A DNA stretch of 44,234 nt. It comes from Escherichia phage vB_EcoS_CEB_EC3a. How positions within the stretch are numbered: position 1 is the first letter of the stretch; every line of letters begins with the position of its first letter. The stretch lies in sequence record NC_047812.1. One strand, given 5' to 3'. This document shows, in pieces, positions 346 to 44,234 of the stretch. Both the position numbers and the translations under genes were made by a program. The notes under the pieces are model-generated. The model was not told the DNA's origin, made no database searches, and saw only the letters and a list, made by a program, of their open reading frames with translations.

Positions 346-413
346 AATTACACTTGACTACACGTGTAAGTCGGGATATTATGGACTCAACTTAAACGAG
401 AGGAGTGATAGAG

Positions 414-893
414 ATGAGCGAGAAGGTAACATTAGGCCAAGTGATTCGTGAGATGGTAAAAGCAGCGCTTAAGTCTGAGGATAAGCAGATCAGCGTGACA
501 CTCAACAAGATTGAGAGCCTTATTGGTGCCGAAGATGGTGGCCTACACAAGCTTAAGAGCTCATACATCTATAATACAACGGCTCGCATGCCTGAATTGA
601 GAGATGCAGGACTGAAGGCAACTCACCATTATGATGAAGAAAGGGGTATTAATGAATTTACTGGGAGTGAGATACTTGGAGACAAGAAGCTGGTTATCAA
701 ACTGATTCCAGGCTCGGCAAACATTGGAATCAGGAAGAAGACCAACGACGCGATCAAGAATGAGGCAATCACTGAGTTCAAGGCGAAGATTTCTAAGGTG
801 ATGCCAGACCTTTCTGAGTATGAGGGTGAAGCGCTTGCGGCAGCGATGAAGGCCATTAAAGATTACCGATTAATTATTGAGGAGATTAAATAA
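414..893 (+). CDS. hypothetical protein
   Basis: ORF with AGGAG RBS 8 nt upstream of ATG 414; first gene after regulatory block. Confidence 0.6.
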   Translation: MSEKVTLGQVIREMVKAALKSEDKQISVTLNKIESLIGAEDGGLHKLKSSYIYNTTARMPELRDAGLKATHHYDEERGINEFTGSEILGDKKLVIKLIPGSANIGIRKKTNDAIKNEAITEFKAKISKVMPDLSEYEGEALAAAMKAIKDYRLIIEEIK

Positions 894-1414
894 TGTTTGA
901 CTTTAAAGACAAACTAACAAGCGAGCAGATCATCAATATTGCACGTGCTGATGGTTATCCACTATTGCGAGTTGCAATCAATGCCAATGGATATCGTAGC
1001 TAAAATAAGTTCTGGGGTCAGCCTGATGCGTCAGAAGTATACAAAGATGAGGCGCTTGGGGTTCTGATTAAGCTAATCATGAAAATGGCAAGGAACGGCA
1101 AAGGAGTTGTCGGCATCAGATATCTATATGAAGGTGCTCGCAAGCTGAAACCATTTGCTGGGCGCGATGGAATGATGCTAGTGATCAAGGACAAGCTAAT
1201 TCCAGAGCTCGATAAGATGAATGTTACCTGTCTAATTGGAGATAAGGTTTACGTCAACCCTGCCTTGACGGATTTAAGCTGGCAACCAAACTTCAAAACT
1301 TACGAAGGTGAGCATGCTAGTAGACTACCATACCACTTGCGGTACAGTGAGGGTGAAGTGGAGATGGCTGTCGAGTTCTACCGGAAAGCTAAATCACTCC
1401 TGAACGGTGAATAG
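893..1414 (+). pseudogene. degenerate inverted paralog of gene 40729-42312: N-terminal fragment 893-1003 and frame-shifted C-terminal fragment 1079-1414, central ~430 codons missing
   Basis: MFDFKDKLTSEQ...LRVAINANGYR matches N-terminus and NGKGVVGIRYLYEGARKLKPF...CLIGDKVYVNP matches C-terminus of the 527-aa protein; fragments in different frames. Confidence 0.55.
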
Positions 1415-1454
1415 CACGGATTGCTAAACAATGGATCGGGTAGTCAGCTATAAT
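1412..1454 (+). promoter_or_regulatory. palindrome-promoter module (TAGCACGGATTGCTAAA, -10 TATAAT 1449-1454)
   Basis: Inverted repeat TAGCA-N5-TGCTA, 22 bp to -10, leader TTACCACATCGA; TAG 1412-1414 is stop of upstream ORF. Confidence 0.6.
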
Positions 1455-1484
1455 TACCACATCGACAACAAAGAGGAAATGAAG

Positions 1485-1685
1485 ATGAAAACTATGATTA
1501 TCGAAGATTTCGCAGGTGACATCACTGAGGTGTCTGCTTCAGTATATTACGACGGCATCGTGAGCATTGACATTGACACGGATAACTTAGGCGATGAAAT
1601 TACTATGTCTCACTATACACCAGAGCAAGCGCGCAAACTGGCGGCGGCATTAATCATGGCGGCGGAAGAGTCAGAGAAGCAATGA
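1485..1685 (+). CDS. hypothetical small protein
   Basis: ORF downstream of module; AAGAGGA RBS. Confidence 0.55.
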   Translation: MKTMIIEDFAGDITEVSASVYYDGIVSIDIDTDNLGDEITMSHYTPEQARKLAAALIMAAEESEKQ

Positions 1686-1698
1686 ATGAGAAATTATA

Positions 1699-1917
1699 AT
1701 GCAAGTATATACGAATAGTAATGGCGTAGAGTATTGTGTTGTTTACGGAGTGGTTCTTCGCACTGTTGGTGGCCTCGGGATCATCAACATTTCAGTGATC
1801 AAGCCTGAATCACTGGTGAAAGGAATCCAGGCCGGAATCTTCAGCTTTCACTCAACGCTGACGGCTAAGCAGTATGTTACCCTCGCCAACGCGGTTAAGT
1901 ACGGTTTTATCAAATAG
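1699..1917 (+). CDS. hypothetical small protein
   Basis: ORF; weak RBS; stop TAG lies in palindrome variant. Confidence 0.45.
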   Translation: MQVYTNSNGVEYCVVYGVVLRTVGGLGIINISVIKPESLVKGIQAGIFSFHSTLTAKQYVTLANAVKYGFIK

Positions 1918-1932
1918 CACTTTTTGTTAAAA
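1915..1932 (+). promoter_or_regulatory. palindrome variant TAGCACTTTTTGTTAAAA without obvious downstream -10/leader
   Basis: Sequence match to motif family; followed by hairpin GGGGATT..AATCCCC. Confidence 0.4.
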
Positions 1933-2110
1933 AGGGGATTCATCCTGACTGGTGTAATCCCCACATCAACCAAACAAATGGAAGTTAAGTGACCATATAC
2001 GAACATAAATTCAGCAGTAGGGGTATTGATATGCTCCTGCACTATTTAGACGAAAAATACGCAAATCTCATGCTTAAGGCGCATGGTGGAACAATAACGA
2101 GGATTGAGAT

Positions 2111-2371
2111 ATGAGCAAGTACGACCGCGAGATTATTGGTATTGATGGCACAGTAACAACAGTAGATGTTTATCGCGTTCTTGATGCGTTCAGCGTATCT
2201 GACCCAGCCACTCAGCATGCGGTAAAGAAGATGCTTTGTATGGGGTTGCGTGGACACAAGGATTACATAACCGACCTTAACGACTCAATCGAGTCATTAC
2301 AGAAAGCCAAGGAGCTTTACGGGCAAAAGATGATTCATCAATCGGATAAATCAAATCTGCGTGGTAAATAG
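2111..2371 (+). CDS. hypothetical protein
   Basis: ORF with GAGGA RBS; stop TAG 2369-2371 is first triplet of palindrome. Confidence 0.6.
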   Translation: MSKYDREIIGIDGTVTTVDVYRVLDAFSVSDPATQHAVKKMLCMGLRGHKDYITDLNDSIESLQKAKELYGQKMIHQSDKSNLRGK

Positions 2372-2411
2372 CACGAATTGCTAAACCCTCTCCGCAGGGT
2401 TTTGTTATAGT
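2369..2411 (+). promoter_or_regulatory. palindrome-promoter module (TAGCACGAATTGCTAAA, TGTTATAGT extended -10 at 2403-2411)
   Basis: Motif family member; 22 bp spacing. Confidence 0.6.
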
Positions 2412-2440
2412 TAGTTCACACCAAACGAGAGGAAAAAAAG

Positions 2441-2671
2441 ATGATTACAATTAACCTGTCAGAGAAAGATGCGTCAACACTCAAGCAGCTTCTTTCAGGA
2501 AATCCGGTGCACACTAATGTTTATAACTTTGGTGAAGTAGAAAGGGAGGTTATCGCACAAATAAACAACCAGCAATTCGACGTAAGTGACTTCGAAAGTT
2601 CTAGACAATACGAGGCGATGAGCGTCAATGCTGCATACCTGACCAACTGGGATAAGGCGACTAATAAATGA
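2441..2671 (+). CDS. hypothetical protein
   Basis: ORF with GAGAGGA RBS downstream of module. Confidence 0.6.
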   Translation: MITINLSEKDASTLKQLLSGNPVHTNVYNFGEVEREVIAQINNQQFDVSDFESSRQYEAMSVNAAYLTNWDKATNK

Positions 2672-2994
2672 TTTACATCCACACATATGGCGTAGGCAAG
2701 TTCGGAAAAGAGATTCATCGCACTGTTCACGATACGAAGGAATCAGCCGAAGCAGCACAAAAAGTTCTAGGCGGTGAGTTCAAGGCTTACCGCGAATCCG
2801 ATGACTCAGTTGATTGCTGGCGTGTAGAGCACATGCGAAACGTGCTTGAAAGTGAAGTATCCGAGCTTATAGACAACATGACATGTCACGGCCCAGGCGG
2901 TCCATGGGAGGAGCCAGGATCACCGGAATGGGATTGCGAAAAAGTTGAAACTATGAACAAGATTAGCGATATAATTGATGGTGTTTATCAGTGA
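2668..2994 (+). CDS. hypothetical protein
   Basis: ORF overlapping previous stop (ATGA coupling). Confidence 0.55.
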   Translation: MIYIHTYGVGKFGKEIHRTVHDTKESAEAAQKVLGGEFKAYRESDDSVDCWRVEHMRNVLESEVSELIDNMTCHGPGGPWEEPGSPEWDCEKVETMNKISDIIDGVYQ

Positions 2995-3088
2995 TTTTTT
3001 GATAAAATGATGCATCCTTAACGCCTCTTGGCAGCAGAAGGTGCTCGGTGGCACAATCAAGGTTTGCGAGATAATTAAAGAATACAAA

Positions 3089-3131
3089 TAGCACTAATTG
3101 CTAAACCATCATTGGGGTAATTTGTTATAGT
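3089..3131 (+). promoter_or_regulatory. palindrome-promoter module (TAGCACTAATTGCTAAA, TATAGT 3126-3131)
   Basis: Motif family member with leader TTACCACACCCAAAC. Confidence 0.6.
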
Positions 3132-3161
3132 TACCACACCCAAACTAACGAGGTTATAAGA

Positions 3162-3266
3162 ATGAGTGAATTAATTAAAACTATCGCGGACTATCCATTT
3201 GCTTCGCTTTTTCTTGCTCTTGCAATATATGAAATTGTAAAGATTATTGTAAAATGTATTAAATAG
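3162..3266 (+). CDS. 34-aa hydrophobic micropeptide (MSELIKTIADYPFASLFLALAIYEIVKIIVKCIK)
   Basis: Short ORF between two modules, CGAGG RBS; single predicted transmembrane helix; stop TAG in next palindrome. Confidence 0.45.
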   Translation: MSELIKTIADYPFASLFLALAIYEIVKIIVKCIK

Positions 3267-3306
3267 CACGAATTTCTAAAACATTATCGGGGTATCTTGC
3301 TATAGT
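3264..3306 (+). promoter_or_regulatory. palindrome-promoter module (TAGCACGAATTTCTAAA, TATAGT 3301-3306)
   Basis: Motif family member; leader TTACCCCATCAAAACGAAAC. Confidence 0.6.
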
Positions 3307-3336
3307 TACCCCATCAAAACGAAACAGGAAGCAGAA

Positions 3337-3516
3337 ATGAAATTTCAACAAGGCGAGCCAAAGCTACAAGCCAACCACTTCGACGGCTACGCAACATTCA
3401 TCATTGCTCAGGCTTTCGGAATGCGTGAAGACCCACAGGTTCACACCATTCACATGACTGAAGAGCAGGCCCGAGAGTTGGCATACGAAATTCTAGAGCA
3501 ATTGAATAAGATTTAA
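3337..3516 (+). CDS. hypothetical small protein (59 aa)
   Basis: ORF read directly from sequence; RBS GGAAG. Confidence 0.5.
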   Translation: MKFQQGEPKLQANHFDGYATFIIAQAFGMREDPQVHTIHMTEEQARELAYEILEQLNKI

Positions 3517-3567
3517 CGCGCACAAAACGCATTCTTACGAACAATAATTTAAGTAAGGTGATTAATC

Positions 3568-3693
3568 ATGGAAGTGCAAGAGAGCGCCGTAGAGTGGTGC
3601 AAGAGAATGCAGGACGAAGCTAAGACGGGTGAAGAGGCGATGGCTTACTACGAGATGGCGCAAATGTGGATGGAACGGGAGAAGAAAGAATGA
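3568..3693 (+). CDS. hypothetical small protein (41 aa)
   Basis: ORF with AAGGTGA RBS. Confidence 0.45.
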   Translation: MEVQESAVEWCKRMQDEAKTGEEAMAYYEMAQMWMEREKKE

Positions 3694-3833
3694 GTTTCAC
3701 TGAATACGTGATCGCATGCGAGCGACTGGTCTTTGATATGAAAACCTTCCACTGGTTCATCATTAAGGATTTAATCAAGCCTTATAAGCAGGGCGTTACG
3801 CCGGAGCGGTTTGTTAAGTCATTTTATAAATAG
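3690..3833 (+). CDS. hypothetical small protein (47 aa)
   Basis: ATGA overlap with previous; stop TAG 3831-3833 in palindrome. Confidence 0.45.
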   Translation: MSFTEYVIACERLVFDMKTFHWFIIKDLIKPYKQGVTPERFVKSFYK

Positions 3834-3873
3834 CACGAATTGCTCAACGCAGTCGACACGGATGGCATATAAT
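3831..3873 (+). promoter_or_regulatory. palindrome-promoter module (TAGCACGAATTGCTCAA, TATAAT 3868-3873)
   Basis: Motif family member, 21 bp spacing. Confidence 0.55.
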
Positions 3874-3903
3874 CACCTTACCAACACAACGAGAGATTGA
3901 GAC

Positions 3904-4044
3904 ATGAAGAACACATATAAATTTTATTATGAAGAAGAGTTTGTGGATGATTTAATTTACTTCAATGAGAAATATGGCGACGAGTTCGTCTGCAATGGGG
4001 ATGAAATGGAAGTGACTGCAAGCTTCAGTAGGGGGTTGAATTAA
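3904..4044 (+). CDS. hypothetical small protein (46 aa)
   Basis: ORF with GAGAG RBS downstream of module. Confidence 0.5.
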   Translation: MKNTYKFYYEEEFVDDLIYFNEKYGDEFVCNGDEMEVTASFSRGLN

Positions 4045-4283
4045 TGTTCGGATTATCAGAAGCGCACTTTAACGCAGTTAAACGTCAGGCTGCAAAGTTG
4101 AACGAAGAGTACAGCAAGTTATCGCCAAAGCAGCGCAAGGATGATAAGCAGGTTGCAGCATTGATTTCGAAGATGTGGGAGCCAGTTTTTACAATCATTA
4201 GTCGGGACCGTTTTGTTTGGACTAGCGGATATCTTAAGGGACGTGTTGGTCATGACGAGAATGGGAATAGCCTTTATGAGTAA
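4044..4283 (+). CDS. hypothetical protein
   Basis: ORF from six-frame track, coupled to upstream gene. Confidence 0.55.
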   Translation: MFGLSEAHFNAVKRQAAKLNEEYSKLSPKQRKDDKQVAALISKMWEPVFTIISRDRFVWTSGYLKGRVGHDENGNSLYE

Positions 4284-4383
4284 GTTCATCGATTGCGTTA
4301 TTTACACGCTATGCGTAGCGCTGGCTTCGGCTTCGGTTATGTTAATCATTGCGGCGATTATGATGATGTTGGGGTATGTATGA
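4276..4383 (+). CDS. 35-aa hydrophobic micropeptide (MSKFIDCVIYTLCVALASASVMLIIAAIMMMLGYV)
   Basis: Short ORF overlapping previous stop; predicted membrane helix. Confidence 0.4.
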   Translation: MSKFIDCVIYTLCVALASASVMLIIAAIMMMLGYV

Positions 4384-4661
4384 GTGAGTTAACAATCTGG
4401 TTTATCGCGGGGCTGATTACTTGGGCTTACTTTTTAATCGTTTAGATGGAGATTGTTAAAAAGAGCTTGCATCACTGACCGGAATTATCTAATATTAACC
4501 ACGTAGACAAACGAGGCCACCAGGTGGCAACGGCGCACGGAGCGCAACTACTAAGTCCGTTGCTCATTAAGTAGCGTAGGCGGCATTAAGACCTAGCGCA
4601 AATAGGCAGATTAACCGGCTGTATCAGGCAGCCCCGGAGCCGTAACCGGGAATCATCAAAA

Positions 4662-4739
4662 GCTCTGCTAGCTCAACAGGACAGCAGCAACGACCTTCTA
4701 AGTCGTAGGTTACTGGTTCGAATCCAGTGCGGAGCGCCA
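4662..4739 (+). tRNA. tRNA-Arg (anticodon TCT), CCA encoded
   Basis: Manual cloverleaf: acceptor GCTCTGC/GCGGAGC, anticodon stem ACGAC/GTCGT with loop CTTCTAA, T-arm ACTGG-TTCGAAT-CCAGT, discriminator G + CCA. Confidence 0.8.
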
Positions 4740-4745
4740 AATTAA

Positions 4746-4847
4746 CGTCGCGTTGCTAATGTTGGTTAAAGGGTGGAGCTTATACCTCCATAAAGCAATC
4801 TCCAGATAAGAGATGTAACGCAGGTTCGATTCCTGCCGCGACGACCA
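4746..4847 (+). tRNA. atypical tRNA-like gene (102 nt), possibly tRNA-Ile (anticodon GAT) with ~24-nt hairpin inserted in D-loop; CCA encoded
   Basis: Perfect 7-bp acceptor CGTCGCG/CGCGACG, canonical T-arm GCAGG-TTCGATT-CCTGC, anticodon-like hairpin ATCTC-CAGATAA-GAGAT, extra hairpin TGGAG-CTTATAC-CTCCA at 4774-4790. Confidence 0.5.
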
Positions 4848-5156: not shown

Positions 5157-5663
5157 ATGAGCAAAGCAGCATTAAAGATGGGCGAGGGAAATTTCAAGGC
5201 GCTCTACAACAAGAAGTATGGCGATATTGCTATGGTGGCAATCAACCGCAAGTACACGCCGGAAGAGGTATTTGACTTTGCCGTTCGATACTTCTCCTGG
5301 GCTGAGAGTGAGGCAATCAAAGCCATTGAGACGGCGGCATTCCATGGAGTTGTCAGTGAAAACCTTGTACACAAGCCTAGGGTGTTCACATTAACCGGGC
5401 TGGCGCTATTTATGGGTGTTAACATCAATAGATTCGCTCGGTGGCGTACTGAGGCTGGGTACTCTGATGTGATGGAATTCATTGATAGCGTAATCTACGA
5501 GCAGAAATATCAGCTTGGCGTTGCGGGTATCATCAACTCCACAATCGTTGGTAAAGAACTTGGCATTGATAAGCCGCAGGAGATTACCATTAGCAACAAC
5601 TCAACAGCTAACGATGTTGACAGTATGAAGGAAGCTCTGGAATCTGTAATTAGCAAGCTATAA
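5157..5663 (+). CDS. terS: terminase small subunit (putative)
   Basis: 168-aa ORF immediately upstream of large terminase, AAGGAGG RBS; position-based call. Confidence 0.55.
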   Translation: MSKAALKMGEGNFKALYNKKYGDIAMVAINRKYTPEEVFDFAVRYFSWAESEAIKAIETAAFHGVVSENLVHKPRVFTLTGLALFMGVNINRFARWRTEAGYSDVMEFIDSVIYEQKYQLGVAGIINSTIVGKELGIDKPQEITISNNSTANDVDSMKEALESVISKL

Positions 5664-5680
5664 CAATAAGAGGGTATAAC

Positions 5681-7246
5681 ATGTCTTTAGTATGGGAAGA
5701 AATGACCATTCAGGAAAAGATGGCCGTTAAGGCGATATCAGAACACAGCTTCGAGGGTTTCCTTCGTTGCTGGTTCCAGATTACACAAGGCGAGCGATAC
5801 ATCCCTAACTGGCATCACAAGTACTTGTGCAGAATCATTGATGAGATTATCGCAGGAGATCGCAAGGACACCATCATTAACATAGCACCAGGCAGCGGAA
5901 AGACGGAAATTGCCTCAATCCACTTCCCGGCCTATTCGATGGTTAAGCTTAGGAAGGTGCGCAACCTTAACATCTCTTTTGCTGACTCCCTGGTTAAGCG
6001 TAACTCGAAGCGAGTACGTGACCTTATCAAGTCTCAAGAATTTCAGTCACTCTGGCCATGCAAATTTGGCACCTGCAAAGACGATGAGCTTCAGGTTCTT
6101 GATGAGAGTGGCAAGGTTAGATTTGAGTCAATATCAAAGGCGGCTGGAGGCCAGATTACTGGCGCTCGCGGTGGGTACATAACCGAAACATACAGCGGAG
6201 CCGTTCTTTTGGATGACTTTGACAAACCCGCAGATATGTTATCAGCAGTGTACCGCTCGAATAATCACGTAATGCTTAAAAATACGATTCGCTCACGTCG
6301 AGCCAGTTCTGTAAAAGGCAAAGCGACACCAATCATTTCGATACAGCAGCGGCTTCACGTCAATGACTCAACCTATTTCATGATGGAAGGCGGCATGGGT
6401 ATCGAATTCGATTTGATTAAGATACCAGCATTAGTTACTGAGGATTACCTAGACACACTACCTGAATGGATTAAAGAACAGTTTGAAGAGGATGTCCTTA
6501 GTAGTGAATACATAGAGCGCGATGGAGTAAGGTATTACAGCTACTTCCCTAAAAAGGAGTCAGTCAATGACTTGGTTGCGATGTGGGATAGTGACCCTTA
6601 CACCTTCCTTAGTCAGTATCAACAAGAACCAGTAGCTCTAGGTGGCAACCTTATTAACGTAGATTGGTTCCAGCGCCTTAGCGACACGTTCAGACCTCCA
6701 GCTAAGTACGATTATAGATTTATAACTTGCGATACAGCTATGACTACAAAAAGTTATAGTGACTTCTCTGTCCTTCAATTGTGGGGTTATAAAGATGCTA
6801 AGATTTACCTTATTGACCAGCGCAGGGGGAAATGGGAAGCGCCCGAGTTAGAGGCAGAGTTAATCGATTTCGAGAAGAAATCAAGGGCAACCAGTCAATC
6901 GGATGGTATCCTCCGAAAGATTATCATCGAGAAGAAAGCATCTGGAATCGGACTCATTCAATCAGCAAGTCGAGTCATGAGAACGCCAGTGGAACCTTAT
7001 GTTCCTGATAATGACAAGTTAACAAGGGTGATGAGTGCGCTGCCACAGATTAAGGCTGGTAACGTAGTTCTTCCTGAGTCTGCGCCGTGGTTAAGCGGAT
7101 TGCTTACTGAGATTGCGGCATTTACCGCTGACGACAGCCATAATCACGACGACCAAATTGATACCATGACAATGGCTATCAACCTGGTTCTGAACATTGC
7201 GGATGATCCTAAGTCGAGACTGATGCGCATAGCGGGAATGAAATAG
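5681..7246 (+). CDS. terL: terminase large subunit
   Basis: 521 aa; Walker A-like APGSGKTE near N-terminus; C-terminal nuclease-like acidic region; precedes portal. Confidence 0.85.
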   Translation: MSLVWEEMTIQEKMAVKAISEHSFEGFLRCWFQITQGERYIPNWHHKYLCRIIDEIIAGDRKDTIINIAPGSGKTEIASIHFPAYSMVKLRKVRNLNISFADSLVKRNSKRVRDLIKSQEFQSLWPCKFGTCKDDELQVLDESGKVRFESISKAAGGQITGARGGYITETYSGAVLLDDFDKPADMLSAVYRSNNHVMLKNTIRSRRASSVKGKATPIISIQQRLHVNDSTYFMMEGGMGIEFDLIKIPALVTEDYLDTLPEWIKEQFEEDVLSSEYIERDGVRYYSYFPKKESVNDLVAMWDSDPYTFLSQYQQEPVALGGNLINVDWFQRLSDTFRPPAKYDYRFITCDTAMTTKSYSDFSVLQLWGYKDAKIYLIDQRRGKWEAPELEAELIDFEKKSRATSQSDGILRKIIIEKKASGIGLIQSASRVMRTPVEPYVPDNDKLTRVMSALPQIKAGNVVLPESAPWLSGLLTEIAAFTADDSHNHDDQIDTMTMAINLVLNIADDPKSRLMRIAGMK

Positions 7247-25544: not shown

Positions 25545-25606
25545 GTTTCGTTTCGATGTGGTAATAGTATCGAATCCTTGCGATCAGTGTTTAGCAATTA
25601 GTGCTA
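25545..25606 (-). promoter_or_regulatory. palindrome-promoter module, minus strand (TAGCACTAATTGCTAAA; -10 TACTAT; leader TTACCACATCGAAACGAAAC)
   Basis: Reverse complement of 25545-25612 matches module; palindrome TAG is stop of Rha-like gene. Confidence 0.6.
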
Positions 25607-26251
25607 TTTCTTTTCGAGTAACATCTTGATGTCAATGCCGAGATTATTTTCAATCAATCCAGTCAGTGCATCCGTCTTTTCTTTAAGGGCAAAACACTGA
25701 GCTTCATACTTAAATCTTTCCTCCATCTCGTCAGAGCGACTAACCCAGCACTGGCGAGCCTCGCAAGCCAGCATGTCGAGTTTTTCATCGGTATTCTTAT
25801 CCATGAGTAAGATCTCATTTATTCTTTGCTCTGCAACAATGCGCTGACTAAGGTGTGCATTTTGCGCATTAGCCACACCAAGCATCATTCGCACTTCTTT
25901 TAACTCATCAATGCTTACCATCTGGCTGATTACTTCTTCTTGTTTTTTAACTAATTGCTCAAGCTCATGAAGTCGACGGATAACTTTGTGTCGAAGCACG
26001 ACGCTGTAGCCAGTGATTAGCGTTTCGGTGAGTTCCTTGTTGAGTAAAATCTCAGATGTATAGCCTCGATTGTCTGTAAGTAGTTGATAATCATAATGAC
26101 CCAAATCTGGGGCATCGTTATAATGTAACAATTCATTGATCATTTCCTTTGTGTCGCGAACGACGTGATCATGACGTTTCCCGGTTAACTCTGCGATTTC
26201 CTTTGTGCTCATCATGGTTTTTGGTTGTTCTTTGTACAATTCAATGTTCAT
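25604..26251 (-). CDS. Rha-family phage regulatory protein (putative)
   Basis: N-terminal STKEIAELTGKRHDHVVRDTKEMI motif; start at ATG 26251 with AGAGAG RBS. Confidence 0.55.
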   Translation of the reverse strand: MNIELYKEQPKTMMSTKEIAELTGKRHDHVVRDTKEMINELLHYNDAPDLGHYDYQLLTDNRGYTSEILLNKELTETLITGYSVVLRHKVIRRLHELEQLVKKQEEVISQMVSIDELKEVRMMLGVANAQNAHLSQRIVAEQRINEILLMDKNTDEKLDMLACEARQCWVSRSDEMEERFKYEAQCFALKEKTDALTGLIENNLGIDIKMLLEKK

Positions 26252-26315
26252 TTTCATCTCTCTTTGGTTTTGTGATACGAAATTTTCGTAGCACAAGCAG
26301 CACCATTGCCGCCAT

Positions 26316-26366
26316 GCGCCTAAATATAACTAAAGATAGTCAGTTGTCTTTAGCAATTAGTGCTAT
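26316..26366 (-). promoter_or_regulatory. palindrome-promoter module, minus strand (TAGCACTAATTGCTAAA, -10 TATATT)
   Basis: Reverse complement shows palindrome 22 bp upstream of TATATT; upstream of Rha-like gene. Confidence 0.5.
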
Positions 26367-32054: not shown

Positions 32055-32078
32055 TGTGTAAAGTCTCCATTTGTAAAG

Positions 32079-32095
32079 TAGCACTAATTGCTAAA
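32079..32095 (+). promoter_or_regulatory. palindrome TAGCACTAATTGCTAAA in + orientation between two minus-strand genes
   Basis: Motif family member; possible downstream -10 TGTATAAAA at 32119-32127 would read antisense into primase gene. Confidence 0.4.
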
Positions 32096-33593: not shown

Positions 33594-34067
33594 TTACTCT
33601 TTAGCTTTTCGTGCGGCTTCGTTAGCTGCCTTGATCTTTCGCCATGAGCGACACTCTGGTTTAGTTGCTAGCTCAGCCTCAGTAACAACACGCAGCATAT
33701 GACGCTTCTTGCAACGTAGAGTTAGCGGTTTCCCGTTACCGTCGAATTGCAGATCTGGTCGGCAGAATGTAGCGCGAAAACCTTCTCCATTTCGCTTATA
33801 GTAGTTGTGCGACAGCTGGGCGCCGCGCGCAGAAATCATCCCACGCTTAAACCATTCTTCTACAGCCTGAGGTGTCACCTTTAACTGCTTTGCGATATTT
33901 GCCTTTGTGCCGAAGAAATCAAGAACAATCTCCAACCGTGCGCGCAACCCAGCCCTTACCTCGTCTTTTAAAACGTAGTAGCCTGAAGGTCGTTTCCGTT
34001 GTTTTTTGTCTTCAGTACGAATGGTTCCGTTGTTCCCGTTAATTGTTCGCTTGTCTACTGCATTCAT
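33594..34067 (-). CDS. putative HTH DNA-binding regulator
   Basis: Basic protein with helix-turn-helix-like NIAKQLKVTPQAVEEWFKRG segment; divergent from helicase gene. Confidence 0.4.
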   Translation of the reverse strand: MNAVDKRTINGNNGTIRTEDKKQRKRPSGYYVLKDEVRAGLRARLEIVLDFFGTKANIAKQLKVTPQAVEEWFKRGMISARGAQLSHNYYKRNGEGFRATFCRPDLQFDGNGKPLTLRCKKRHMLRVVTEAELATKPECRSWRKIKAANEAARKAKE

Positions 34068-44057: not shown

Positions 44058-44152
44058 TTTATTGATTGTTGCATATATTGCAATGATTATCATGACTATT
44101 GCACATATGGCAATATTGCTTCAGATGCAATGATGTTTTTGATTGTTGCGAA
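44058..44152. repeat. cluster of short TTGCA/TGCAAT and GATTGTTGC repeats upstream of rightmost minus-strand module
   Basis: GATTGTTGC at 44064-44072 and 44141-44149; ATTGCA-type motifs repeated 4-5 times. Confidence 0.45.
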
Positions 44153-44234
44153 AAGTGAAATGAAGTTGGGAGTGAGTGAATGAAAGATGGATGGACTACC
44201 ATACAAGTTGATTTTGATTCCCGCTGAGCCATTT

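Follow-up and report, generated by a model that had tools for sequence, protein, structure and literature searches.

Small accessory genes and marbox-like promoter modules in the putative early region of Escherichia phage vB_EcoS_CEB_EC3a

The genome of Escherichia phage vB_EcoS_CEB_EC3a (EC3a; NC_047812.1), a virulent, T1-like member of the Braunvirinae (Drexlerviridae), was analysed over its whole length of 44,234 nucleotides (nt), referred to here as the window. Fourteen plus-strand genes encoding products of 21-108 amino acids (aa) fill positions 1485-4445 and form six short units (mini-operons) of one to four genes. Each unit follows one copy of a ~75-nt module, which consists of a 21-nt repeat, 20 nt, a -10 hexamer and a short leader with a Shine-Dalgarno sequence. 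In sequence, orientation, spacing and the absence of a -35 element the repeat is indistinguishable from a marbox of class II, marboxes being the asymmetric sites of the monomeric activators MarA, SoxS and Rob (consensus 5'-GCAHWWWWTGYYAAA-3'; PMC6900184). The array itself is an ordinary phage accessory ('hyperplastic') block, the usual genome 'dark matter' of small conserved hypothetical genes. The explanation that we favour for the whole, with some reserve, is an accessory block of small genes subject to modular exchange and transcribed from class II marbox promoters served by host MarA, SoxS and Rob.

The repeat is present in 18 copies genome-wide against 0.44 expected, and six of these lie in this 3-kb block, which makes up 7% of the genome (Poisson probability ~0.002). 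The modules form repeat families of 59-79 nt. Beyond the repeat come TATAGT or TATAAT and a conserved TACCACATCGAAACGAGAGG-like leader, with an ATG ~30 nt past the -10 and a repeat-to-ATG distance of ~73-77 nt. The -10 is TG-extended in three of the six array modules and in 4/15 of the tabulated modules. In 10 of the 18 copies genome-wide and in five of the six in the array (binomial probability ~0.02 against a one-in-three expectation), the TAG doubles as the stop of the preceding gene, and many upstream proteins end in lysine because the repeat supplies their stop. The original prediction gave most of the small genes a palindrome-promoter module of their own, which the sequence contradicts on two counts: six modules serve the 14 genes, one per unit of one to four genes, and the repeat is asymmetric and strictly strand-specific, not a palindromic operator. 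Nor is the module peculiar to this block or to early genes. The same element also stands 5' of portal, tail, recombination and helicase genes, late genes among them, and therefore neither sets an early class apart nor is particular to the array.

In consensus, intergenic position, direction relative to transcription and spacing, the element is the 21-nt direct repeat aaATAGCACnnnTTGnTAAAA of phages TLS, T1, Rtp and Rogue1. It has reportedly been noted since the T1 genome paper. The TLS paper describes ~18 intergenic copies per genome, oriented along transcription and located ~76 nt upstream of start codons (PMC11447400). Its authors likened the repeat to stoperators, enhancer sites and UP elements, proposed an as yet unnamed enhancer-binding factor, and in 2024 counted what the repeat does as one of the questions still open for T1-like phages (PMC11447400). 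To that account the present analysis adds the fixed 20-nt spacing to the -10, the missing -35 and the match to the marbox.

The marbox consensus has 14 matches in the window at no more than one mismatch, compared with 1.42 expected, and nine are perfect, all of them repeats. Within the array, the boxes of M2 and M4 match the 15-mer perfectly, that of M3 departs from it at one position and those of M1, M5 and M6 at two. Repeats were scored with a matrix built from 72 Salmonella chromatin immunoprecipitation sequencing (ChIP-seq) sites bound by MarA, SoxS, Rob or RamA (Table 1 of PMC10268841). They reach 13.7-18.6 bits, compared with 15.0 for the micF box of E. coli and a 90th percentile of 16.6 among genuine sites. 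One repeat, at 7246, has the very sequence of the best SoxS site in the same table. The enrichment extends to relatives. Phages 12210I, DTL and T145P1 have 14-17 marbox matches each against ~1 expected, with a sharp TAnnnT peak at offset 20, and T1 has 22 against 0.74 expected. The DNA of M5 is conserved in ~360 Klebsiella phage records.

At class II marbox promoters a forward box overlaps the -35 position, near -41, there is no recognisable -35 and the -10 is normal (PMC10268841, PMC12052159, PMC8811837). In the array, each of the six boxes lies on the coding strand and faces the gene, and 12 of 15 modules have exactly 20 nt from box to -10. The position that a -35 would occupy at 17-nt spacing has on average 0.87 of six matches to TTGACA and holds no -35 hexamer, while most modules carry TATAGT or TATAAT as their -10, M2 being a poor exception. 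Read directly from E. coli K-12, the micF promoter consists of GCACTGAATGTCAAA, 20 nt, TAGAAT, 7 nt and the annotated 5' end, and the box-to--10 geometry of the phage modules is identical to it. The box centre comes to lie at -41 on the assumption that transcription begins 7 nt past the -10; starts in the phage are predicted.

From the sequence match and the geometry together, the modules are most likely class II promoters, at which monomeric host MarA, SoxS or Rob (RamA in Klebsiella hosts) would replace -35 recognition and recruit RNA polymerase, as at micF. Both the binding of these activators and the dependence of the modules on them are inferred from the DNA. Such recruitment of host stress activators is probable and appears to be unreported, as literature searches yielded no earlier report linking marboxes with phage promoters. 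A wider proposal can be put forward tentatively. T1-like phages may run most of their transcription, including that of the array, from consensus class II marboxes by borrowing host MarA, SoxS and Rob (or RamA), and expression would thereby be coupled to bile, antibiotic and oxidative stress signals. Replicating super-consensus boxes might also titrate the regulators off the host resistance regulon, and products of the array, or of the genes gA and gB that precede it, might activate or stabilise the host activator.

Features of the block and its borders are listed in Table 1. The expectation of at least 12 open reading frames (ORFs) of 34-108 aa was exceeded, there being 13 of that size and one of 21 aa. 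Coupling of several of them, also anticipated, is seen as overlaps at six junctions: ATGA stop/start overlaps at 2111, 2668, 3690 and 4380, TAATG at 4042-4046 and ATGAGTAA at 4276-4283. Behind the single module of each mini-operon, translation would be handed from gene to gene through these overlapping stops and starts. A third hydrophobic ORF had been suggested at 4379-4444; it is present, one base further on, at 4380-4445. The picture of a dense array of small genes thus stands, with 14 ORFs in 1485-4445, ten of them backed by selection or conservation.

Table 1. Genes, promoter modules and flanking features of the small-gene block of EC3a. Positions are those of the window. M1 to M6 are the array modules; bits refer to the marbox score matrix. 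PHROG numbers denote protein families. dN/dS, ratio of non-synonymous to synonymous substitution rates; net, net charge; UTR, untranslated region.
Feature	Position	Strand	Description
Canonical sigma-70 promoter TTGACT-17-TATTAT	354-382	+	Head of rightward unit, 5' of gA and gB
gA	405-893		First gene after the canonical promoter; kept in all relatives; unknown function
gB	893-1414		PHROG 7327; stop is the TAG at 1412-1414 in M1
M1	1411-1484	+	15-mer 1414-1428 (GCACGGATTGCTAAA), 20-nt spacer, -10 TATAAT 1449-1454, AAGAGG before g1 ATG; 16.8 bits
g1	1485-1685	+	66 aa, acidic (net -10), PHROG 13316; gp04 in EC3a record
g2	1699-1917	+	72 aa, PHROG 34564; dN/dS 0.18-0.31; stop is the TAG of repeat M2
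M2	1914-1988	+	Perfect marbox 1917-1931 (GCACTTTTTGTTAAA), stem-loop GGGGATT...AATCCCC, weak -10 TGTAAT at 21 nt; 16.0 bits
g3	1989-2114	+	41 aa, GTG start, PHROG 12148; stop overlaps g4 start (ATGA); dN/dS 0.14-0.35 in five relatives
g4	2111-2371	+	86 aa; dN/dS 0.07-0.11; ends in GK and stop within repeat M3
M3	2368-2440	+	Marbox 2371-2385, terminator-like hairpin 2383-2402, extended -10 TGTTATAGT (hexamer 2406-2411), GAGAGG in 5'UTR; 17.5 bits
g5	2441-2671	+	76 aa, Pfam DUF7180 (E 1.2e-23); dN/dS 0.12-0.34
g6	2668-2994	+	108 aa, net -11, ATGA-coupled to g5, PHROG 3955
M4	3088-3161	+	Perfect marbox 3091-3105 (GCACTAATTGCTAAA), extended -10 TGTTATAGT (hexamer 3126-3131), 5'UTR; 18.6 bits, the genome top
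g7	3162-3266	+	34 aa, hydrophobic/amphipathic; single-gene cassette between two modules
M5	3263-3336	+	Marbox 3266-3280, two consensus mismatches, extended -10 TGCTATAGT (hexamer 3301-3306), 5'UTR; 13.7 bits
g8	3337-3516	+	59 aa, PHROG 7411; dN/dS 0.06-0.12
g9	3568-3693	+	41 aa, acidic, PHROG 1312; gp10 in EC3a record
g10	3690-3833	+	47 aa, ATGA-coupled to g9, PHROG 22596; dN/dS 0.01-0.04; stop is the TAG of M6
M6	3830-3903	+	Marbox 3833-3847, two consensus mismatches, -10 TATAAT 3868-3873, 5'UTR
g11	3904-4044	+	46 aa, acidic (net -7), no PHROG match; accessory, close clade and T145P1 only
g12	4044-4283	+	79 aa, basic, PHROG 303; dN/dS 0.02-0.03 within genus
g13	4276-4383	+	35 aa, predicted single-pass membrane micropeptide; start overlaps g12 stop, stop overlaps g14 start
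g14	4380-4445	+	21 aa, predicted membrane micropeptide (MSELTIWFIAGLITWAYFLIV); last in coupled chain g11-g12-g13-g14
sigma-70 promoter TTGCAT-17-TAATAT	4467-4495	+	Array boundary; then tRNA-Arg 4662-4739 and 99-nt tRNA-like gene 4746-4844

Coding potential was assessed by dN/dS against seven relatives. Ratios of 0.01-0.35 indicate purifying selection on g2, g3, g4, g5, g8, g9, g10 and g12. With the ORF conservation of g7 and g14 described below, comparison with relatives supports ten of the 14 genes as real (g2-g5, g7-g10, g12 and g14). Support is weaker for g1, with a single finite ratio of 0.39, and for g6, where 0.20-0.28 applies to the first ~40 residues only and dS is near saturation; for g11 and g13 it consists of ORF and character conservation only. 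The first ~44 residues of g6 alone are conserved among relatives, its acidic C-terminal extension being clade-specific. A longer reading of g1 (84 aa, from 1431) would begin 5' of the predicted transcription start. An (H)xTxEQARxLA motif is common to g1 and g8, and g12 was found in every Braunvirinae or Rogunavirinae relative examined. In the deposited EC3a record g11 corresponds to gp12 and g10 to gp11. The same record carries no annotation for g3, g7, g13 and g14, as judged from an exact-product search of ~15 billion proteins, from which the g3, g13 and g14 products were absent and in which that of g7 occurred only from read assemblies.

The nearest relatives of the window are Braunvirinae phages. 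The array region is 99.6% identical to that of E. coli phage UALMA_PCEc3, 99.4% identical to that of 'Pseudomonas phage PsgS01F' (PP134917) and, in pieces, ~86% identical to those of Veterinaerplatzvirus phages (Drexlerviridae, Braunvirinae). PsgS01F reportedly infects P. syringae, yet is this close here to E. coli phages EC3a and PCEc3, and its host assignment appears doubtful. Only seven related loci were found in IMG/VR.

The order gA-gB-[small genes]-g12-g14-tRNA-g15-terS is kept across Braunvirinae and Rogunavirinae, and the small genes in between vary in presence and order. Ends of homology blocks against nine relatives (n = 113) fall within 20 nt of a gene boundary in 71% of cases versus 29% for random positions, and after clustering 25 of 40 are near a boundary (p = 1e-5). 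Junctions occur at the edges of all six array repeats. In DTL one module leads straight to g12, and g13 is elsewhere replaced by nothing or by a cysteine-rich ORF. A deletion-type junction 3' of g14 is common to the window, 12210I and Rtp. At 4434-4452 the window lacks 319 bp that are present in PsgS01F, DTL and T145P1 (6035-6353 of the PsgS01F locus) and encode a 102-aa cysteine-rich protein (MRTLRQILHCCKKHHYVYFRD...) ATGA-coupled to g14. The block is thus a mosaic. As every cassette carries the same module, exchange may be directed by the modules, and recombination between them and at gene boundaries would add, remove and reorder cassettes.

A number of points weigh against the explanation of the block as exchangeable cassettes run by host activators. 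In classical T1-resistant mutants the lesion lies in the receptor (fhuA, tonB), and rob, marA and soxS are not the loci affected. Unstressed cells contain little MarA and SoxS, and a large part of Rob needs inducers to be active, so that the phage may depend on these factors partially, redundantly or only under some conditions. The -10 and +1 positions are predicted, and literature searches yielded neither mapped transcription starts nor data on expression timing or detected proteins for any T1-like phage. M1, M5 and M6 carry two mismatches each to the 15-mer, M2 has no good -10, and the presence of the repeat before late genes means that it gives no account of temporal control and does not define the array as early. 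Selection alone would also be expected to put junctions at gene boundaries, without module-directed recombination. Finally, no function is assignable to any product of the array.

This last point agrees with the statement of the original prediction that none of the products is recognisable by sequence, as searches of PHROGs, Pfam, NCBIfam, the PDB and Foldseek gave families of unknown function or nothing. Ten of the 14 products fall in PHROG families, all of 'unknown function', and DUF7180 in g5 is the one Pfam match among the 14. NCBIfam gave no match to any array product. Sequence searches of the PDB were empty for g4, g6 and g12, and empty or marginal when gA and a Cro-like regulator (see below) were included. 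The AlphaFold model of g12 (predicted local distance difference test, pLDDT, 85) has three helices and a tail, and a Foldseek search of the PDB and BFVD returned only another uncharacterised T1-like phage protein, a homologue. That of g4 is poor (pLDDT 64). In a profile search (4292 cluster representatives) g4 appeared as a stand-alone copy of a huge uncharacterised domain superfamily, usually C-terminal in proteins of 100-310 aa that themselves have no Pfam domains. Nothing supports the labels 'terminase large subunit' (EC3a record) or 'terminase ATPase subunit' on g4 homologues, the real terminase genes being at 5157-7246.

The original prediction, in its narrow form, would make the array chiefly an arsenal of anti-restriction or anti-defence proteins, which we consider rather unlikely. 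It is true that cassettes are gained and lost between close relatives, that the array lies right behind an early promoter, and that g1, g6 and g11 are small and very acidic, like DNA mimics, although acidity alone is not diagnostic of these. Drexlerviridae also vary widely in their sensitivity to immunity systems, with no genomic explanation so far, yet most of them are reportedly highly sensitive to restriction-modification (PMC8594841). No anti-restriction or anti-defence family or fold, such as Ocr or ArdA, was matched in Pfam, PHROGs, NCBIfam, the PDB (g4, g6, g12) or Foldseek (g12), these being general libraries and not dedicated anti-defence ones. Over half of the array genes combine conservation between subfamilies with strong purifying selection, which is more typical of core developmental or takeover functions. 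This conserved half looks like core phage biology, g10, g12 and g14 behaving as core and not as arms-race genes. The products would be non-structural, and the core (g3, g4, g5, the N-terminal module of g6, g8, g9, g10, g12 and g14) probably has a part in phage development or in taking over the host. Among the variable genes, g1, g2, g7, g11 and g13 are low-certainty candidates for host-specific or counter-defence roles; for the acidic members among the variable genes an anti-defence or host-takeover role is possible, with no support from homology.

For the repeat, the competing idea is a phage-encoded DNA-binding protein that recognises it and activates or represses all module promoters. Candidates would be a Cro-like regulator at 33594-34067 (-), a Rha-like protein at 25604-26296 (-) and the early product gA. 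Conservation of the repeat genome-wide and family-wide is what a dedicated phage regulator would yield, and an enhancer-binding factor was what the TLS authors proposed (PMC11447400). EC3a does encode a Rha-domain protein and a helix-turn-helix protein with a weak match to P22 Cro (E 3.9e-6, which falls short of the Pfam cut-off), and gA, kept in all relatives and of unknown function, comes first behind the canonical promoter. Cro-type dimers, however, bind symmetric sites, whereas the repeat is asymmetric and strand-specific, and no AraC-type protein with two helix-turn-helix domains was found among the phage ORFs scanned. The simultaneous match to a marbox in sequence, orientation, -10 spacing and -35 absence would otherwise be a remarkable coincidence. 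A phage regulator thus seems improbable, and class II marbox promoters used by host activators are still the reading that we prefer for the modules.

Other known elements were tried against the repeat and rejected. The distance from GG to GC does not fit a sigma-54 promoter, TTGCTA taken as a -35 leaves a spacer of 22 nt, which is too long, and a CII-type TTGC repeat would have a different period. Sites for DnaA, OxyR and CRP match the repeat poorly, and an RNA hairpin or terminator would have to be made from a 5-bp stem without a T-run. Two perfect marbox repeats fall outside the usual pattern. One, at 32078-32095 (+), is situated between two minus-strand genes with a terminator hairpin immediately 3', and the other, at 26349-26366 (-), is missing the usual leader; these repeats might drive short or antisense transcripts.

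The two peptides of 34-35 aa had been described as hydrophobic single helices and the third, of 21 aa, as hydrophobic. Membrane insertion is predicted for g13 and g14 (summed insertion free energy over 17 residues of -2.1 and -1.4, respectively) and is borderline for g7. The latter is hydrophobic, with a grand average of hydropathy (GRAVY) of 1.17, but E24 and K27 put its best 17-residue window at +2.2, which makes it a marginal or amphipathic case and not a clear-cut transmembrane helix. It is missing from most relatives, including T145P1 and 12210I. A homologue annotated as gp67 in phage phiEB49 is 79% identical, lies in another genomic context and differs by 11 synonymous and seven non-synonymous (conservative) codon changes.

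By tblastn, g14 has matches in 105 phage records, including Rtp, DTL, Rogue1 and phiEB49, and spans two subfamilies. It invariably follows g12, directly or past one inserted small ORF, to which ATGA or GTGA overlaps link it, and is the final gene ahead of the conserved tRNA promoter. The ratio of non-synonymous to synonymous differences (pN/pS) is 0.25-0.54, the variable columns in ten aligned homologues number 11, 4 and 15 by codon position, and E3, W7, G11, W15 and F18 are retained, together with hydrophobic character, through many synonymous changes. A 50-aa extended reading of g14, annotated in PsgS01F, was rejected: in relatives without g13 the start is a conserved ATG overlapping the g12 stop. 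The slot of g13 holds divergent, equally hydrophobic counterparts in DTL (31 aa) and IME542 (30 aa). g13 is annotated nowhere, and the PsgS01F record has an overlapping alternative frame instead.

On these predictions, g13 and g14 would insert into the inner membrane, and g14 probably works with soluble helical g12, its constant translational partner; a membrane-anchored g12/g14 pair is our best guess, made with low confidence. In Rogue1, gp11 (2450-2827 of the Rogue1 locus) is a natural fusion of homologues of the g6 N-terminal module and of g12, which hints that these two may act together. A holin or lysis role for g7, g13 and g14 finds no support in gene position, as relatives carry their holin, endolysin and spanin in what corresponds to ~39.2-40.4 kb here, 35 kb away. 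The type I toxins Ibs and TisB and the inner-membrane regulators AcrZ and MgtS are small hydrophobic membrane peptides. g13 and g14 resemble them in having 21-35 aa, one predicted helix and few charges, and differ in sharing no sequence similarity with them, in having no evident antisense RNA partner and in lying inside a coupled phage operon.

That these three ORFs are instead translated spacers which pass ribosomes onward, or chance ORFs, with functionless peptides, is decidedly improbable. They are very short, g13 and g14 sit in a chain of overlapping stops and starts that continues in several relatives with an ATGA-coupled cysteine-rich ORF after g14, a stop codon truncates g14 in IME542 and the sequence of g13 is poorly conserved. 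The idea is weakened by amino-acid-level conservation through synonymous change, seen in the residues and hydrophobicity that g14 keeps across two subfamilies and in the excess of synonymous over conservative changes in g7 despite the different phiEB49 context. Nothing is coupled 3' of g14 in the window or in Rtp, and a hydrophobic helix is kept in the g13 slot of three phages despite divergence. Functional membrane micropeptides therefore remain our interpretation of g13 and g14.

The window begins within a divergent control region, from which two canonical sigma-70 promoters diverge at 354 (+) and 44113 (-), the only intergenic ones genome-wide at a match of at least 10/12. This scarcity recalls the surprise of the TLS authors at finding only three in TLS. 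The rightward unit starts at the first of these promoters and comprises, in this order, gA, gB, the small-gene array, a pair of tRNA genes, terminase, and the head and tail genes. An 'early region' label for the array is plausible, since it sits directly 3' of promoter 354-382 and no strong terminator occurs before 5090. The region 1-400 plus 44100-44234 may be an origin or control region; short ACGC/TACG-rich repeats fill 1-90, and 121-148 is a (TAT)9 microsatellite.

Several features near the array deserve mention. An in-frame TAA at codon 37 splits gB into ORFs of 36 and 111 aa; the gene is intact (174 aa) in PsgS01F and has another in-frame stop in DTL, so that gB may be decaying or dispensable, or the stops may be sequencing errors. 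The 93-nt non-coding spacer from g6 to M4 (2995-3087) is conserved in 12210I and DTL and has two overlapping sigma-70-like matches. Right 3' of the g14 stop, 4446-4495 contains a degenerate repeat (TAG ATGGAGATTGTTAAAAAG) that has lost its GCAC half, followed by the TTGCAT-17-TAATAT promoter for the tRNA block. The 160-nt leader 4502-4661 is conserved and its structure is not unusual (z = -0.69). The tRNA-like gene scores 41 bits with the Rfam tRNA model and shows a cloverleaf (z = -2.7) with a ~25-nt D-arm insertion and GAU in the anticodon loop. It escaped ARAGORN, whereas sister records list a tRNA-Ile here.

The analysis resolves the block into a conserved core and exchangeable cassettes, and gives comparative support to four genes absent from the deposited annotation, one of them a 21-aa membrane peptide conserved across two subfamilies. 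If the marbox reading is true, it answers the published open question on the 21-nt repeat. Widespread virulent coliphages and Klebsiella phages, many of them proposed for therapy, would then be wired to the regulators of multidrug efflux and porins, and exposure to antibiotics or bile would be linked to phage productivity.

That the repeats are stoperator-like or terminator elements which halt or silence transcription between cassettes, an analogy raised in the TLS paper (PMC11447400) and favoured by the upstream stops that most copies supply and by the hairpin in M3, is hardly credible for a virulent phage in which no repressor or integration genes were seen, most modules have no hairpin with T-run, and a -10 at a fixed 20 nt and a leader with its Shine-Dalgarno at a fixed distance make up the anatomy of a promoter. 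The repeats and the stoperators of mycobacteriophage L5 are both asymmetric, short, intergenic and of single orientation, and often overlap stop codons. In L5, a temperate phage, the prophage repressor blocks elongation at these sites (Brown et al. 1997, cited in PMC11447400), whereas EC3a is virulent, annotated relatives have no integrase or CI-type repressor, and a -10 and leader come after each repeat.

In their position at mosaic junctions, the modules resemble the PeSL cassettes (early promoter plus stem-loop) by which T4-type phages shuffle modules within their hyperplastic regions (Arbiol et al. 2010, PMC2839356). Both are repeated small regulatory cassettes that flank small, mostly unknown and non-essential genes, and in both, indel and replacement junctions lie at the cassettes. 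A PeSL, however, combines a strong sigma-70 promoter with an efficient terminator. The EC3a modules have a marbox in place of a -35 and a hairpin in some copies: M3 alone has a terminator-like one with a T-run, and M2, M4 and M5 have short stems without it. The modules also resemble chromosomal class II promoters, with micF as prototype. They share with these the GCAC-7 nt-AAA pattern within the marbox consensus, the forward box near -41, the 20 nt to the -10, the absence of a -35 and a canonical or extended -10. The modules differ in belonging to a virulent phage, in preceding most of its operons, in lying nearer the consensus than most chromosomal sites and in recurring as a 75-nt module, where chromosomal boxes are scattered single copies; use of the same activators by the phage would be the further step that this resemblance suggests.

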